From assembly GCA_023247825.1 (NCBI GenBank), contig JAHFFR010000004.1:1-54562 (forward strand): DNA of 54,562 nucleotides, read 5' to 3'. Of this stretch, positions 26,901 to 32,334 are shown piece after piece (positions within the stretch are counted from its first letter, which is position 1; every line of letters starts with the position of its first letter). Source of the DNA: Candidatus Omnitrophota bacterium (GTDB lineage: Bacteria > Omnitrophota > Gorgyraeia > Gygaellales > Profunditerraquicolaceae). A program made the position numbers and the translations under genes. The notes under the pieces were generated by a model. It saw nothing but the letters and a program-made list of their open reading frames with translations. It did not search any database and had not been told where the DNA came from.

Positions 26901-26980
26901 CCGCTAAACGCTACTATTCCTACTATTGTGAAACAAATCAGTGCTAAAACCATTCTGCCGCTTAAAAATTTCTTTAACAT
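23921..26980 (-). CDS. fbp: Signal-peptide-bearing bifunctional fructose-1,6-bisphosphate aldolase/phosphatase (FBPase class V) fusion with extra N- and C-terminal domains (1,019 aa)
   Basis: KADVGSSGGH, VGDD, YGAGQDLLADAFSGNVKGAGP, ADKTAPGAFN, EYVGKDDP (Tyr and Schiff-base Lys), GWMRGS, DGPP (core ~24780-25870); SD CAGGAGG. Confidence 0.93.
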   Translation of the reverse strand: MLKKFLSGRMVLALICFTIVGIVAFSGITAGFASTKVDSVNNTDTLRTQSATARDGDLASMFSSGFLSEPGKVLAHDKIFKVKAAKAFVEGRAVEIFGHNAVNDLDKSASEFIQKSGEIDILKGEISQKLFSARSFLDNKVFTDDFINKVVSEISKIDENGVQKAIEGKSAKKTATAFLKKIKAIAAIKDASERTKEARKAIVNDTRFVTFLFGEKGLDPSLSSVGDILSSEHRTLIAHVGTFAYEGSKNIEGGARTIYSSLARINSFEEEGDEGVALYQEMMLHEFMDMARGKHVDVAKDVSAKLSKINDKINKNFNNVITEVTEEGSVIASNDKVKIEKFRLINDLGKKDTFAIKGSSKIHPGVPKGQLLTITIAKADVGSSGGHGTAPGIMLEAVAEKWMKAAERGEIVDFFITRVGDDISVTITHDKGKDNEYIHQNIWDGFVQGAVVAKDHGFYGAGQDLLADAFSGNVKGAGPSVAEMVIREQAAEVVIFTQADKTAPGAFNKGIWNIIFGPDTTWRPLGPGNSVDINAGMLDFDHNNSAGRHIWLKNNDYADAYWFGGEPDRYTYDLIKVGEEEMAAVTAQRLGKIAGEYVGKDDPMFMMRSQKKFPAVGEITSAFLKGEYMVPGWMRGSNKGPFFPVALTDAKIGIYDGPPLLSMWSFNLNNGRLEGFYDLMAANPAIRYIQDRRAAAALRQLEEGFGEGGLRLPATEIEYQKGPEIIEKRLKDRWENYVSEDNIEIAKQKAVDAEFIEIGKKVTANKGRAMLAVAQELTWGKDLAPIAKSFPADINFGISAKGLEINKAKDGKVYTILVDHETLLKNSPAGIMALQNISEQLGQGNIKIVLHINRDDIKPEEVEQAVAADLEKINKINGGYAEIKRDMFAAVVVGTNPEIIANQVREKLNTAIYQVIGPEEYVNQFEGKMVTRIAIDSAKDAGTSDAISVAKALKLGLELIPAAEEGKEVSNEDVNKLDGLFSKDTTTGNFHVGAGQSVTEVEASVNRYKTEITTAGIAI

Positions 26981-27013
26981 CTCATTCCTCCTGTTTTATT
27001 AATTTCCATTTTT

Positions 27014-28564
27014 TTATTCCAGCTTATTTTCATCTATATTATCACTCCCCTGATTTTTCCTTTCGCCTCTTAAGACGGAAAGGTAAATACTGGAGTCGGT
27101 TTTTTTCGTGATCGCCGGGGTTACCACTGCGTAGGAATACCCCTTATCTCTAAACATCTGGGTCATGCCGGGAGTATGAAACCCGCCGGCAATAAACACC
27201 GCTAATTTTTCACCGGAATCATTCATTTTATTGACGATATTCTTAATAAATGCCTGCTCCCGGTCCGAGCCCAATTTATAAAACTCATCGAATTTACTCA
27301 AGTTCTCATCGATTACGCCGGAGGCGGATGGCTGCACCGCTAAACTGTATTTGGCGCAATTCTCCTTTAAAAAATCAAGCCAGGAAGCGGTTAAAAATTC
27401 CTGGCGATGTGCTTTAAAATATTCAAAATCCTCGGGGGTCATCTCTAAACTCACCAGCCCTTTGAGGATGTTAATTGATTTTGAGAGTTCATATAATTTC
27501 TTCTGGTCGGTATTGGCAAAAAGCGCCTCTTTTATTTTTTCTTCCAGCGAGCCAACTTCTTTTAAAAGCGCTGCCACATCTATCTTTGTATTTTCATTTA
27601 TGTAGCGGATATAAGCGGCCAGCTGAGGATAATTTTGCTCAAGGTTTATTCTTTTCTTCGCCGCCAGTTCCTTCAAAAATGAATAATATTCCTGGGGCTT
27701 AATACCGCCTGACTTAAATTCCTGGCTCTTATCAATTACCGTCTTTACCTGTTTTTCATTAAGCACGCTGCCCAAACTCTTGATGAATTCATTTCTTTGC
27801 GCTTCCGCCTGTTTAAAATCAACCGCTTTTTCCAGCCGGGCTAATTCAGCAAAAGCGCTTAAATATGGATAATCCTTAAGGTCAAAACCTTTGCTGGAAG
27901 CAATATTCTTAAGATACCCGCAGTAATCGCCTAAAGAGAGCGTTTTACCTTCGTAATTCTTCTTTGCGCTTTCCATATATCCCAATTCTTCACTATATAT
28001 CTTCGGCTTCAAAACGCTGACAATTTTGGATAAATCATCCAGATATTTTAATCCCTCGTCCCGGACAGAATCCACCTTATGAAAGGCCTCTAAATGCGCG
28101 TTATACAGCGCTTCATCCTCTATGCCATACAGGTCAAGAGGATAATCGGAAATGATATCCAGATACTCTTCGCCTGAAATTTTGCCTAATTTTAAGTATT
28201 TGTCGGCAACTTCCTGCCTGGCCTTTTTATCCGCGTAGTTGCGCAGAAAGTCAAGGTTAACATTACCGCTGCCGCCCTCAACCATAATCAATTTAAGGCC
28301 GTAGTCCTTGACCAAAAAATCCAATAACTGCGCCATATTCTTCTGGGCTTCGTAATTGCAATGGGCATCCTGGAGATGAATAATGGTTTTGGCGCTATTT
28401 TGCATGGCGCTCTGTGCTTCGAATGTATCCTTAATATTGCCAAACTGGGTGGGAATTTGCAGGGTTTTGACTAAAGAGGCGAAAGCAGAAGAATCCAAAG
28501 TGGAAAGTAAAAGGAATACAACAATGAGTAAGGGAATTTTTTTCAGGTAATGAGGTTTTTTCAT
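27014..28564 (-). CDS. Exported TIKI/TraB/ChaN(EreA)-like fold protein, standalone
   Basis: Signal MKKPHYLKKIPLLIVVFLLLSTLDSSAFA; motifs IIHLQDAH..YEAQ, MVEGG, DRE..F..NI, FIAGGFH..G. Start placed at ATG 28564; the track's extension to 28621 lies inside the structured leader. Confidence 0.65.
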   Translation of the reverse strand: MKKPHYLKKIPLLIVVFLLLSTLDSSAFASLVKTLQIPTQFGNIKDTFEAQSAMQNSAKTIIHLQDAHCNYEAQKNMAQLLDFLVKDYGLKLIMVEGGSGNVNLDFLRNYADKKARQEVADKYLKLGKISGEEYLDIISDYPLDLYGIEDEALYNAHLEAFHKVDSVRDEGLKYLDDLSKIVSVLKPKIYSEELGYMESAKKNYEGKTLSLGDYCGYLKNIASSKGFDLKDYPYLSAFAELARLEKAVDFKQAEAQRNEFIKSLGSVLNEKQVKTVIDKSQEFKSGGIKPQEYYSFLKELAAKKRINLEQNYPQLAAYIRYINENTKIDVAALLKEVGSLEEKIKEALFANTDQKKLYELSKSINILKGLVSLEMTPEDFEYFKAHRQEFLTASWLDFLKENCAKYSLAVQPSASGVIDENLSKFDEFYKLGSDREQAFIKNIVNKMNDSGEKLAVFIAGGFHTPGMTQMFRDKGYSYAVVTPAITKKTDSSIYLSVLRGERKNQGSDNIDENKLE

Positions 28565-28760
28565 AGTAATAAAAAAAGCCACGATTTTTTTAATTATACT
28601 AGCTGAACTCCCATAATACATTCAGCTAGCGTAATTAAAAACCGTGGCCGATTTTAATTATACTATCTAGTTACCTAATCTTTTAAACTTTTGAAAAGTC
28701 CTTAGAAAGCGCTTTCCTTTAATTCTTCTACAAGTATACTGTATTATAGAGCTTTGTCAA
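28565..28760 (-). promoter_or_regulatory. Leader copy 1: sigma70 promoter + palindromic operator + alternative-hairpin attenuator
   Basis: TTGACA (28760-28755)-16 nt-TATACT (28738-28733); GAAAGCGCTTTC (28705-28716); hairpin TAATTAAAA-TCGGCCACGGT-TTTTAATTA; long stem GCCACGGTTTTTAATTA...TAATTAAAAAAATCGTGGC followed by a T-run. Confidence 0.75.
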
Positions 28761-28800
28761 GATTTTTTTCACTTTTTTAAAGCAAAAAAGCGAGTTTACG

Positions 28801-31800
28801 TTATATAAACTTATTTATAAAATTAGCCACTAAATCAGCGTCGGCTTTGGTTGCCTCGGATACCCCCTGAACAGGCTCTATATCCGGCAAATCAAGTCCC
28901 AAAAACACCTGACTATAAGTATTTTTATAGGTCTCTTTAGAAATAATCCCCTGGCGCTCCATATTTCCATAAAATTCTTTGAACCTATCTAAAATAATTC
29001 CGCTGTAAGATCTCCCTTCTGAATTTGCGCCTGCAAGAACTTGCATCGCCTTGGCAAGCGCAACAATACTGATCGTCTTATCTGAAAATCCCACTTGTTT
29101 AACTTTTAAATCTATCTTTTCTCCTGCCGGCTTCAGTATCACAACATTCTCTTGAAGATTAACCTGCCGATTTTCTAATTCTGACTTTAATTCGCCTGCT
29201 GTTTTTACTGCAATAATGTTGCTGTTTTCGCTAAACAAAGCCCTTATCTTATCCGCGCCTTCTCCATAAATATCAAGCATAATACGTACGCCATGGCGTG
29301 GCTGCAATCTAATAATCGCGTTCAATGCGTCTATGGCGCCGGGCTTCTTAAAAAAGCTTGAATGAACAACTAAAGCTAATTTTAAATCTTCAAGGCGGAA
29401 TGTTTTAGAATACAAAACTTCAAACTGCCCCCATATATCGTCAAGATATCCGGGCAATAGTGCCTCTGCGCCTACGGCTTTAAAGAATCTGCTGTTAGCA
29501 TTTAAGAAATTTTTTAACTTTTCTGCATTGCCATCATCAAAGCCTATTTTAACAGGTATGCCTTCCCCATTAACCCATAGCCTGTAAGCTGGTTTAAAAC
29601 GCTCCTGCCAGAGTTTTCCTGCTTTTTCACGGGAAGAAACTGCTTCTTTTAACAATTTTCCTGCTTCGGTTCCTTCCTTTTGAGCAGCTAATTTCTCTTT
29701 TTTGTCTGCATCTTGGTCGCGGTTAACTGCGTCCCTATCCATAGCAAAATTCCTGCCCACAACTCCGGCAAGCTGGATGTTACCTGAATTAAGTTCCTTT
29801 ATCTTATCTTCAATCTGTTTTAAATAATGGATCCCGTTTTCATCGGGTATGCGCGTCATCACATCCCGGCCATCAAGTATCGGCCAGATATTGACTTTAA
29901 TATCGCTGCCTAAATTCATTTGTTTTGCCATTTCCATTAATGCCAGAAAATATCTATTATCGGAATGGATGCCGCCGCTGGAATAAAGCCCCATTATGTG
30001 GATATTATGGTTTCCCTGTCTGGCCAATTCAAATACCTGGCGTAAAACCGGATTTTCAAAAAAAGTTTTATCATTAATTTTATCTATAATCTGTTTATAA
30101 AGCGTAGGCGGATTGTAACCTGTCCCGATGACACGGTGTCCATTGTCTGAATCTCCCATTTGATAATCCGGAAGCCCAACCGCATCTCCATGAGCCTTAA
30201 GAGCTGTAAAAGGACAGTTCGTAAGAAGATCCAAGTAAACCGGCGGCTTGGCTAATTCAATACCGTTATATTCATTTGCCTCAGGGTTATTATATTTATT
30301 CACCCCCCAGCCATCGCGGATCACTACAACTACCGGCCCTTGAATATCCTGATATTTATAATCTTCCAATAAACTTTCACTCATTTCTTCAGGCTTAGGA
30401 ATGCCTAATATTTCTAATAAAGTTGCGGCTATATTAGAAAGCCCCTTGCCCTTTTTTAATTTTATATCCTTTCCCAATCCATCAACTATAAAATTAACCG
30501 GATTAGTAGTGTGCTGATCAAAAGGGATTACACCATATTTATCAGATAAAGGCATGCCTTTCTCGTCTAAGGTTACCAACTGCTCAATATTGCCATGGTC
30601 TGATATTTCAATATAAACACCTTTCTGACGCAGAGTTTCCTCGCGAATTCTTCCAGCTTCCTTATCCGCGGCTAAAACCGTCTTCTTGGCCCGCTCCCGG
30701 TCAACCTTGATATTATGCCCCTGGATATCCACAGGCAAATTAACAACGACCATTTTCTTTTTGGGCGTTTCTTTAATTTCATCCAGATAATTAATTACAT
30801 TATCAGTTATCTCTGCATATTTCATTTGCGGAGCTTTCTTATTATCTTCAACGCTTTCGGAAGGAACAATTGATACCTTTATGCCCAAAGCCGCATAATC
30901 CAGGTTTCTCTGTCCGGCAAAGAAATAGGTAACGTGCTGGCCCTTATCCGATTCTGTAAAATAACCTTGAATCACGCCTGCATCTTTCAAAACTTCTATG
31001 ATACTTTTATACTTAGGCAAAGTAAACTCGGAAGTAAATGCGGCTTGAATTCCGTAAGCTTTAAAATGCTTCTCATCGTAAGTAGTAAAAGGTACAAAAG
31101 TGAGCCCTAAATCATCGATACCAAAACGATTACCATGCCGGTTGAAATTCGGATCCGTAAAAGCAATCATTGCTCCTAATGAACGGTCGGTCCGATGATT
31201 CGTCCAGATAACTATATCGCCTTTCTTTATTTTACCTACGGGCTCGCCTTTAGGATCAGTTACTATCAAAGGGGGCACATAATAATCATCCATACTTGCC
31301 CCACTTTTCGTGTAAATTTTTTCCAACTGCTCAAAAATTGTAGGCAGAGGTTCCTTCGCTTTTAATTGAATAAATCCGATAGACCTGCCTTCAGGAGGAT
31401 AAAAAACTCTTTCTCCAGTGACTATATCCTCATCATTAAACTTGAAATCAACAAATTTTTCTTTTAAATCTTCTTGGGAAAAATAATGGACAAGTTTTTC
31501 ATCTCTTACAAAAGTATTTTTTTCTATCTTTTCGCCTTTGCCATAGGTTTTGTCGTTCACTGATTGAGCAATGAAATATATGCGGCCGCCTGGTTTTAAA
31601 ACTCGGTATATTTCCTTAATAGCCCTAGCAATGTCGACATCTTTCATAAAATTTAAGCTTAAGTGACTGTAAACCACATCAAAGGATTCATCTGAAAAAG
31701 CAAAAGTTTTGGTAAGATCTTGAACCTTGGTTGTCAAATTTTTTATATTTTCTTTATTAATTTTACCACTTAATTCACTAATTGCAGATTCAACAAAATC

Positions 31801-32172
31801 TGTAGCAATTACGGTATGCCCGGCTTTTGCAAAAGATTCTTCGTCTAATCCTGCTCCACAACCTAGAGAAAGAATCGTTGATCCCGGTATCATATCTTCG
31901 AGTACTTCTTTAGCAAATTGGTGTATTTCTATCTGTTTAGCTTTTCTGGCATCTTTTAAATCTTTCTTCCAGACTAAATGTTGATCAATTAACTCTTCCG
32001 AAATCTCTTTTACTCTTCCATCTTCTTTTGTTGCCGCCTCTCTCCTTAAATTATCCGAAACGAATATACCGGCATAACTCCTTATCGGAACGCCGGTAAA
32101 AATAAAACTGGTTAAAGCAACGCCGGAAATGAATTTTACGAATTGAGTTTTTTTAGGAAATCGTGTGTACAT
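28801..32172 (-). CDS. gpmI: Signal-peptide-bearing fusion: class I SAM methyltransferase - circularly permuted 2,3-BPG-independent phosphoglycerate mutase - shared C-terminal domain (1,123 aa)
   Basis: Start reassigned to ATG 32172 (SD GAGGAG; leader homologous to the other fusions). MTase SLGCGAG, FDVV, RVLKPGG; iPGM NHRTDR, ESDKGQHVT, DIQGH, SDHGN, HTTNPV, then RDGWG, GDSDNGH, GGIHS, DGRD, GRNFAMDRD. Confidence 0.9.
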   Translation of the reverse strand: MYTRFPKKTQFVKFISGVALTSFIFTGVPIRSYAGIFVSDNLRREAATKEDGRVKEISEELIDQHLVWKKDLKDARKAKQIEIHQFAKEVLEDMIPGSTILSLGCGAGLDEESFAKAGHTVIATDFVESAISELSGKINKENIKNLTTKVQDLTKTFAFSDESFDVVYSHLSLNFMKDVDIARAIKEIYRVLKPGGRIYFIAQSVNDKTYGKGEKIEKNTFVRDEKLVHYFSQEDLKEKFVDFKFNDEDIVTGERVFYPPEGRSIGFIQLKAKEPLPTIFEQLEKIYTKSGASMDDYYVPPLIVTDPKGEPVGKIKKGDIVIWTNHRTDRSLGAMIAFTDPNFNRHGNRFGIDDLGLTFVPFTTYDEKHFKAYGIQAAFTSEFTLPKYKSIIEVLKDAGVIQGYFTESDKGQHVTYFFAGQRNLDYAALGIKVSIVPSESVEDNKKAPQMKYAEITDNVINYLDEIKETPKKKMVVVNLPVDIQGHNIKVDRERAKKTVLAADKEAGRIREETLRQKGVYIEISDHGNIEQLVTLDEKGMPLSDKYGVIPFDQHTTNPVNFIVDGLGKDIKLKKGKGLSNIAATLLEILGIPKPEEMSESLLEDYKYQDIQGPVVVVIRDGWGVNKYNNPEANEYNGIELAKPPVYLDLLTNCPFTALKAHGDAVGLPDYQMGDSDNGHRVIGTGYNPPTLYKQIIDKINDKTFFENPVLRQVFELARQGNHNIHIMGLYSSGGIHSDNRYFLALMEMAKQMNLGSDIKVNIWPILDGRDVMTRIPDENGIHYLKQIEDKIKELNSGNIQLAGVVGRNFAMDRDAVNRDQDADKKEKLAAQKEGTEAGKLLKEAVSSREKAGKLWQERFKPAYRLWVNGEGIPVKIGFDDGNAEKLKNFLNANSRFFKAVGAEALLPGYLDDIWGQFEVLYSKTFRLEDLKLALVVHSSFFKKPGAIDALNAIIRLQPRHGVRIMLDIYGEGADKIRALFSENSNIIAVKTAGELKSELENRQVNLQENVVILKPAGEKIDLKVKQVGFSDKTISIVALAKAMQVLAGANSEGRSYSGIILDRFKEFYGNMERQGIISKETYKNTYSQVFLGLDLPDIEPVQGVSEATKADADLVANFINKFI

Positions 32173-32185
32173 CTTTCTCCTCACA

Positions 32186-32334
32186 AAACAAAAAAACCAC
32201 GAATTTTCTAATTGGGATAACTGAACTCTTCTGCCGAATTCAGTCAACTCAATTAAAAACCGTGGCCGTTTTTAATAGAAACCGCTTTCCTTAAATTTCT
32301 GCTATAAGTATGCTATATAATAAAATTTTGTCAA
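32186..32334 (-). promoter_or_regulatory. Leader copy 2: sigma70 promoter + palindromic operator + alternative-hairpin attenuator
   Basis: TTGACA (32334-32329)-16 nt-CATACT (32312-32307); GAAAGCGGTTTC (32289-32278); hairpin ATTAAAAA-CGGCCACGG-TTTTTAAT; long stem CCACGGTTTTTAATTG...CAATTAGAAAATTCGTGG followed by a T-run. Confidence 0.75.

Follow-up and report, generated by a model that had tools for sequence, protein, structure and literature searches.

Proteins of the Tiki superfamily (Tiki/EreA/ChaN/TraB) that have been characterised as enzymes hydrolyse either peptide bonds, as Tiki and RRSP do, or an ester, as Ere does. The bacterial PrgY and TraB work on signal-peptide-derived peptides at the membrane's outer face. 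Secreted Wnt loses N-terminal residues to Tiki; the endopeptidase RRSP has the active site E3900-x-H3902, E3930, R4001 and H4030, in which His and Glu are 28 residues apart and Arg and His 29; in Bcr135 the spacing of H85 and E113 is also 28 (PMC6254334). In graspetide loci, a function as leader peptidases has further been predicted for Tiki/TraB proteins (PMC8939145). Here we describe a Tiki-like protein of 516 residues encoded on a 54,562-nt stretch of DNA (hereafter the window) from a Candidatus Omnitrophota bacterium (assembly GCA_023247825.1, contig JAHFFR010000004.1). The protein is very probably an exported module of this superfamily with an intact active site. The best overall explanation of its function, which we put forward tentatively, is that of an exported hydrolase maturing the N-terminal regions of co-exported large proteins.

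The motifs on which the first-pass annotation of this DNA had based its guess of a Tiki/ChaN/EreA-type protein are all present: QDAH at residues 65-68, VEG at 95-97, DRE at 434-436 and AGGFH at 459-463. Conservation was followed in two alignments, A1 with 37 orthologues and A2, of greater diversity, with 31 stand-alone relatives. D66, H68, E96, R435, G460, G461 and H463 are invariant in both, together with four tyrosines (Y154, Y321, Y429 and Y494). Across 149 stand-alone and 111 fused homologues, these seven residues and Q65 are conserved at 99-100%, while the mean column identity of the family is 32%; such conservation is far more than chance would produce. D66-x-H68 follows directly on strand 60-65 (D 99%, H 99-100% in the 260 modules), E96 ends strand 92-95 at 28 residues past H68 (100%), and R435 and G460-G-F-H463, both 100% conserved, lie 28 residues apart, as is characteristic of the superfamily. 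The His-to-Glu spacing of 28 is that of RRSP and Bcr135. R435 and the GGFH motif align with the invariant R269 and G292-x-G-H295 of TraB/GumN.

In the AlphaFold2 (AF2) model, which has a mean pLDDT of 85, every motif is found at the C-terminal end of a β-strand, and the order of strands and helices agrees with a Tiki-type core. E96 and R435 are separated by an all-helical insert, modelled with a pLDDT around 90. When the C-terminal half was aligned by hhalign with 30 true TraB/GumN proteins (A3), it gave E = 1.9e-4 in the register R...GxxH...GY, compared with 0.18 for a mismatched control; R435 falls on the invariant Arg, GGFH on GAGH, and the following G-Y is in register. The Pfam family ChaN (PF04187) points to the same region: its positions ~135-205 fall on the Arg...GGxH part of the module in nine of the twelve best Omnitrophota matches, and one match reaches 28.0 bits, above the Pfam cut-off of 27.7. 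Matches to PF04187 in Omnitrophota genomes lie mostly within large open frames. Of the 67 distinct members of the family that were scanned, 9 show weak ChaN or TraB matches, and one of the 37 orthologues matches PF01963 (E = 0.01). As far as it could be checked, the original superfamily guess is borne out by the residue set and its spacing, by the TraB/GumN and ChaN register of the C-terminal half, and by the appearance of Bcr135 and HopBA1 among the structural matches. The Foldseek comparison, which the first-pass annotation had proposed as a check, gave a divided answer: two Bcr135 entries and HopBA1 (3b55, 2rad and 5t09) are among the top 30 of 350,542 chains searched with the whole model, but long-helix proteins lead the list. 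The weak scores of the Tiki-fold structures reflect the dominance of the helical insert in the search.

Several results weigh against the assignment, and against any function built on it. The window's protein matches no entry in Pfam, NCBIfam or the PDB sequences, and the N-core and C-core pieces, searched alone against the same three, gave nothing relevant. In its N-terminal half, neither the TraB nor the ChaN profile finds a significant match. PF04187 gave no match to the window's protein below the E = 1 threshold; PF01963 matched neither this protein nor anything in its own genome, and no match extends over both halves. The Foldseek scores of the Tiki-fold structures are weak (E 0.5-1.7, TM about 0.1-0.25). 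These are the results expected if the motifs had converged on some other alpha/beta fold and the weak matches had arisen by chance, as are the hhalign probabilities of 2-47%, confined to the C-terminal half, and Foldseek E values that are all above 0.1. We regard such convergence as improbable: independent weak signals agree on both superfamily and register (TraB by hhalign, three Tiki-fold PDB entries in the top 30), ChaN matches occur in dozens of family members with one of them above the cut-off, and solved enzymes have the very same residue spacing. We take the fold to be assigned with good support but short of proof; membership of the Tiki/EreA/ChaN/TraB superfamily is highly likely.

Comparison with individual members places the module at some distance from each. 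Like RRSP and Bcr135/EreB, it has an acid-x-His after a strand, a Glu 28 residues on at a strand end, and an Arg 28-29 residues before a G-x-x-His turn (PMC6254334); as in them, the core appears to be a parallel sheet flanked by helices, with extra domains appended to or inserted in it. Unlike RRSP, it has Asp rather than Glu two residues before the first His, and the helical segment between Glu and Arg measures ~300 residues compared with ~70 in RRSP. It is also a Sec-exported bacterial protein, whereas RRSP and the Ere-like enzymes are, respectively, a toxin effector and cytoplasmic resistance enzymes. Sequence similarity to RRSP and Bcr135 is too low for a direct match. With TraB/PrgY/GumN (PF01963) the module shares the register of the C-terminal half (F/Y..R[DN]....M/F, a strand, G-x-G/x-H, then G..L...GY) and the presence of a helical insert between the Glu strand and the Arg helix (E94 to R269 in TraB/GumN), but the insert is about twice as long here, C-terminal membrane segments are absent, and the N-terminal half is not detectably similar. 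A true TraB was present in one of 81 sampled Omnitrophota genomes. ChaN, also of the Tiki superfamily, is the Pfam model most often matched by family members, always at the R...GGxH part; in contrast to this small haem-binding lipoprotein with a domain of ~250 residues, the module has no lipobox, spans ~480 residues and retains the full catalytic-type set.

Two systems offer analogies of function. Vertebrate TIKI1/2 belong to the same superfamily, are extracytoplasmic and trim the N-terminus of secreted proteins after signal-peptide removal, which would parallel the role suggested here; unlike the module, they are eukaryotic type I membrane proteins, and direct sequence similarity is not detectable. 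LapG is a periplasmic protease encoded near a giant adhesin gene; it cuts the N-terminal part of the adhesin and is under c-di-GMP control through LapD. It is a functional analogue only, having the unrelated fold of a transglutaminase-like cysteine protease and serving a different secretion system. Within a known superfamily, the gene described here forms a new and strongly diverged branch; its architecture is new, and so is its biological setting.

The helical insert bears on what the substrate might be. A large helical domain inserted in the core is also found in Ere enzymes, the best Tiki-fold matches in Foldseek are the Bcr135 entries (206-211 aligned columns), and the invariant Y154, Y321, Y429 and Y494 suggest a lined small-molecule pocket. 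The protein could accordingly be pictured as an exported, esterase-like (Ere-like) hydrolase acting on a non-protein substrate, such as an envelope lipid, a glycan or an acyl/acetyl ester, on its own surface or on that of a prey or host cell, where it would prepare the site at which giant proteins insert or act. Some of the cargo attached to the module elsewhere is carbohydrate- or envelope-acting (PIG-L deacetylase, GH5 cellulase, hexapeptide transferases), which fits; the cargo as a whole is very diverse and gives no single hint of a substrate. The Pfam family Erythro_esterase (PF05139) appeared in no scan of family members (67 distinct members at E <= 1, with 25 families shown for each scan), and the tight linkage of the gene to exported proteins with a common post-signal motif is more easily read as protein-directed activity. 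We rate an Ere-like role as rather unlikely, behind maturation of co-exported proteins.

The insert gave rise to several matches that we do not take as informative. Profile searches of the PDB with A1 and A2 returned a myosin light chain (E = 0.017) in the insert and one match at 1.8, both discarded as helical coincidence; weak paired-amphipathic-helix and EF-hand-like sequence matches come from the same region. The long-helix proteins that lead the Foldseek list (ClyA-type pore formers, BAR domains and chemoreceptors; E 0.1-3) were taken as non-specific matches to the insert, and a pore-forming function was rejected, since the insert contains no hydrophobic segment. The paired-amphipathic-helix family PF23202 weakly matches 27 of the 37 orthologues, the window's own protein falling below the cut-off. 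An internal repeat is seen in the insert at window positions 27600-27900 (residues ~225-320), where Y-P-x-L-x-x-[FY] followed by a helix and I-D occurs twice.

The signal peptide claimed for the protein was confirmed: the leader consists of a basic n-region, a 14-residue hydrophobic core and A-F-A ahead of the predicted cut, and a leader with basic n-region and hydrophobic core was found by the hydropathy scan in 37 of 37 orthologues. The same scan shows no second hydrophobic segment elsewhere in the 516 residues. The leader contains no Cys, and with it no lipobox of the ChaN type, so it is not a lipoprotein signal. The open frame itself extends over 27014-28621 on the minus strand, and the ATG at 28564 yields the 516-residue protein. 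A start at 28621, which would add 19 codons, was dropped; 28564 is the likely start because homologues lack the extension, which lies inside the leader hairpin described below.

A position immediately behind a leader is also what a targeting or anchoring domain would show, and the module could in principle be a non-catalytic head: a docking, anchoring or chaperone-like unit by which large exported proteins are kept with their N-terminus at the membrane or a secretion apparatus. Its conserved polar residues would then bind a ligand or metal, much as ChaN binds haem, and the stand-alone copy would be an adaptor or assembly factor without cargo. The long helical hairpins could allow the module to oligomerise, the Pfam family matched by it is ChaN, and the C2 domain of PMT shows that the fold can be non-enzymatic (PMC6254334). 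The full set of two His, acid and Arg, kept at 99-100% in a family with so low a mean identity, is instead the pattern of an active site, and the non-enzymatic PMT has lost the catalytic set (PMC6254334). The lack of a lipobox and of a second membrane segment also speaks against anchoring, and a non-catalytic head seems unlikely to us.

The module belongs to a large family. A profile search of 1.84 billion cluster representatives found 9,277 proteins at E <= 0.001, of which 5,936 are at E <= 1e-30. In nearly all of the 150 matches listed, the module begins within the first ~120 residues, mostly at 40-120, of proteins that range from 440 to 5,568 residues. It was found in 220 of 401 sampled Omnitrophota genomes, usually in several copies and in a strongly lineage-dependent manner; in the genus of the window, 3 of 16 sampled genomes have a copy. 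Module-bearing open frames in the 401-genome sample reach 14,309 residues. In six frames of 9,228-14,309 residues, the alignment to a leader-including profile opens 12-52 residues past the preceding stop codon, which places the module directly behind the hydrophobic segment of giant frames. In large and giant multi-enzyme proteins the module normally comes first behind the leader, with a diverse cargo following it (PIG-L deacetylase, PP2C, hexapeptide transferases, GH5 cellulase). The first-pass annotation had described the protein as stand-alone and without a cargo domain; this holds for the gene itself, whose frame stops 11 residues past the module end, but not for the family, in which the module heads thousands of cargo-bearing large and giant proteins. 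Homologues fall into at least 254 clusters of 45-77% identity, all named hypothetical protein of Candidatus Omnitrophota. The family is apparently confined to this phylum; matches outside it are a few metagenome-assembled genomes with other labels, possibly reflecting problems of labelling or binning. We found no mention of a Tiki-, ChaN- or TraB-like domain in the Omnitrophota papers searched.

Two further features were noted among relatives. Many paralogues (P0125, P0137, P0138, P0144, P0147, P0158, P0197, P0228, P0239, L013, L023, L028 and L030) carry (R)NIFQ(K/R)K or (T)FWE(K/Q)(R/H) between leader and module; the orthologue group of the window lacks this motif, which may represent another type of post-signal tag. 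A compact, insert-free ChaN/Tiki-like domain occurs in other large Omnitrophota proteins (L056, G135:C1; L060, G057:C28; L062, G069:C37), in open frames of 216 to 1,733 residues, the L060 frame being interrupted by a stop. It has G-E-x-H, a Glu at +27 to +29, R-D-E and G-x-x-H, reaches the PF04187 cut-off (L060 and L062 only together with neighbouring matches in the same frame) and is not matched by the A2 profile; by these sequence features it is a second, separate Tiki-type family in the large proteins of the phylum. In hhalign, the C-terminal half of our module cross-matched the N-terminal half of three compact ChaN-like domains found in other proteins of the phylum, which is consistent with an internal two-fold repeat and uninformative as a test.

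In a FastTree phylogeny of 265 modules, the window's protein is placed in a clade of 123 sequences, all stand-alone, with support of 95. Stand-alone and fused states change 14 times on the tree, compared with about 84 times when labels are shuffled; the sampling over-represents stand-alone proteins, owing to the length limit of the first search. The topology indicates that the stand-alone lineage is old. A recent fission from the downstream gene was rejected in view of this clade and of the downstream protein's own signal peptide. At about 12 of 16 stand-alone loci, the gene lies co-directionally beside open reading frames that fill the whole 10-kb flank (>2,800 residues), and at two loci the upstream called gene encodes 31,973 and 32,476 residues. 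The usual arrangement is co-directional, between a giant gene and large enzyme-fusion genes, and in the large neighbours the signal peptide at the start regularly gives way to [D/N]xLR or a motif close to it, with D-G-G often coming a few residues further on. At six loci (L036, L037, L038, L044, L047 and L048), the next large open reading frame begins in overlap with the stop codon of the stand-alone gene or directly beside it, which suggests translational coupling, or a recent fusion or fission.

These relations lead back to the proposal that the protein matures co-exported proteins. That it works as an active hydrolase outside the membrane is inferred from the export signals, the constrained Tiki-type residue set, the head position of the module and the linkage of stand-alone copies to giant and large exported proteins. 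Once exported and freed of its signal peptide, the protein would act outside the cytoplasmic membrane, where the His-Glu pair would activate water in the manner put forward for Ere enzymes and RRSP, the Arg would hold the substrate, and the helical insert could serve as a substrate-binding lid. Its likeliest substrates would be the N-terminal regions of the large co-exported proteins around the gene, which in this window would be four enzyme fusions with a signal peptide plus D-x-L-R. The stand-alone protein may thus do in trans what fused heads would do in cis, trimming or releasing parts of giant proteins during maturation. A role as maturation peptidase of the neighbouring exported proteins is plausible. 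For the suggestion made at the outset, that the protein may cleave the DxLR leader or the DGG junctions of the giant protein, the support is circumstantial and consists in stand-alone copies adjoining giant genes and proteins with a signal peptide plus [D/N]xLR. A more far-reaching and rather unlikely version would make the module the common catalytic head of a phylum-specific maturation route for giant exported proteins. Each of these would either bear a head of its own, trimming or releasing the cargo in cis after Sec export, or have just a signal peptide and a short [D/N]xLR tag and be processed in trans by the stand-alone enzyme, whose gene lies between the giant gene and the enzyme fusions.

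Some observations count against a maturation function. A DxLR-like motif ([DENST]xLR[PQTKRG], 3-fold enriched) stands behind the module in only 17 of 109 fused proteins, so that a universal cis-cleavage site is not evident, and the LR dipeptide shows no positional peak behind the module in fused proteins. With its core plus large helical insert, the module most resembles in architecture the Ere-like esterases, whose substrates are small molecules. Finally, some superfamily members, such as ChaN and the C2 domain of PMT, are non-enzymatic (for PMT, PMC6254334). As a separate observation, the members P0129, P0131, P0132 and P0135 of one fused subfamily have E-N-L-R-[QP] some 50 residues past the module, then D-G-G/E-G-G and ..E-L-T; this order, an xLR tag followed by a DGG junction, is the order behind the signal peptides of the enzyme fusions in the window.

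Table 1. Positions of the Tiki-like gene, its parts and its flanking features in the window.
Feature	Position	Strand	Basis or remark
Exported Tiki-like protein, 516 residues	27014-28564	-	ORF list and translation; stop codon 27014-27016
Sec-type signal peptide, residues 1-29, predicted cut after A-F-A	28478-28564	-	Hydropathy scan
N-terminal half of alpha/beta core, residues 37-150	28115-28456	-	AF2 secondary structure, invariant columns
D66-x-H68 after strand 60-65	28349-28372	-	Within N-terminal core half
E96, end of strand 92-95	28271-28291	-	Within N-terminal core half
All-helical insert, residues 151-420, about 270-300 residues, with invariant Y154 and Y321	27305-28114	-	AF2 model
C-terminal half of core, residues 421-505	27050-27304	-	hhalign against TraB/GumN; Pfam ChaN PF04187 matches
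R435-E436	27257-27262	-	C-terminal core half
G460-G-F-H463-T	27173-27187	-	C-terminal core half
Spacer to FBPase_3 fusion, 33 nt, with GGAGG ribosome site	26981-27013	-	Sequence
FBPase_3 fusion gene, 1,019 residues	23921-26980	-	Pfam FBPase_3, E = 1.6e-89; class V fructose-1,6-bisphosphatase domain
Upstream spacer, 236 nt	28565-28800	-	Promoter-like site, hairpin and U-run
Promoter-like site	28733-28760	-	Promoter scan, 11/12 matches
Long hairpin, then U-run	28577-28649	-	z = -5.05; ends ~10 nt before the start codon

The large genes of the window are all on the minus strand. In the order of transcription, a giant open reading frame of >7,199 residues, which runs off the contig, is followed by a fusion of methyltransferase and phosphoglycerate mutase (1,148 residues) and then by the Tiki-like gene, which is present in one copy in the window's own assembly. 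Downstream are the fructose-1,6-bisphosphatase (FBPase) fusion, a PPDK-type fusion of 2,154 residues, a fusion of GPI, TIM, PGK and enolase domains (2,371 residues), a protein of 2,260 residues without a Pfam domain and, last, a sugar ABC transporter. The distance of 33 nt to the FBPase fusion, as first reported, proved correct, with the fusion starting at 26980 and a GGAGG in the gap. Each of the four enzyme fusions opens with a signal-peptide-like leader followed by D-x-L-R. Glycolytic domains within Omnitrophota giant proteins have been reported (bioRxiv 10.1101/2023.11.21.568195). When the FBPase fusion, and also its C-terminal tail, served as queries within the family and genus of the window, nothing but the query itself was matched, which says nothing about co-occurrence. 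When the cluster (10140-32247) is compared with a related locus (L003; GCA_040961635.1, JBFOMZ010000029.1), the PPDK fusion is 79% identical, the FBPase fusion 61% and the Tiki-like protein between 51%; the genes of the cluster would seem either to evolve at very different rates or to have different histories.

The regulated leader that the gene was also said to possess is confirmed in part. The elements of a putative leader of this kind are there, namely the promoter-like site and a hairpin that folds far better than shuffled sequence, with a further copy of hairpin and U-run, 79% identical, at about 32190-32270 on the minus strand, upstream of the preceding gene (28801-32247); an Rfam scan of the leader returned only noise, with no family matched. 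Hairpin and U-run together look like a terminator or attenuator set in a leader. Each copy lies just ahead of a start codon, and the two genes concerned follow one another.

The Omnitrophota are characterised by giant proteins of 10,000 to >100,000 residues, which have been catalogued in two preprints; these discuss C39 and S8 peptidase domains and do not mention a Tiki-like module. The significance of the present finding lies mainly in the size of the family, its missing annotation and its marking of giant protein starts. At least 9,277 protein clusters are now seen to share a first domain that is conserved and enzyme-like and has its Tiki-type active site intact; this domain deserves a curated profile, since neither Pfam nor NCBIfam has one that covers it. 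In fragmented assemblies, the module can be used to recognise by sequence where the true N-termini of giant genes lie, and its stand-alone form, a single small soluble protein of 55 kDa, is a tractable target for expression, assay and crystallisation. If a common head and a [D/N]xLR tag do operate together, a processing enzyme and a recognition tag would for the first time be defined for the giant proteins of Omnitrophota. More generally, the module may shed light on the maturation of the large and giant proteins of this phylum.

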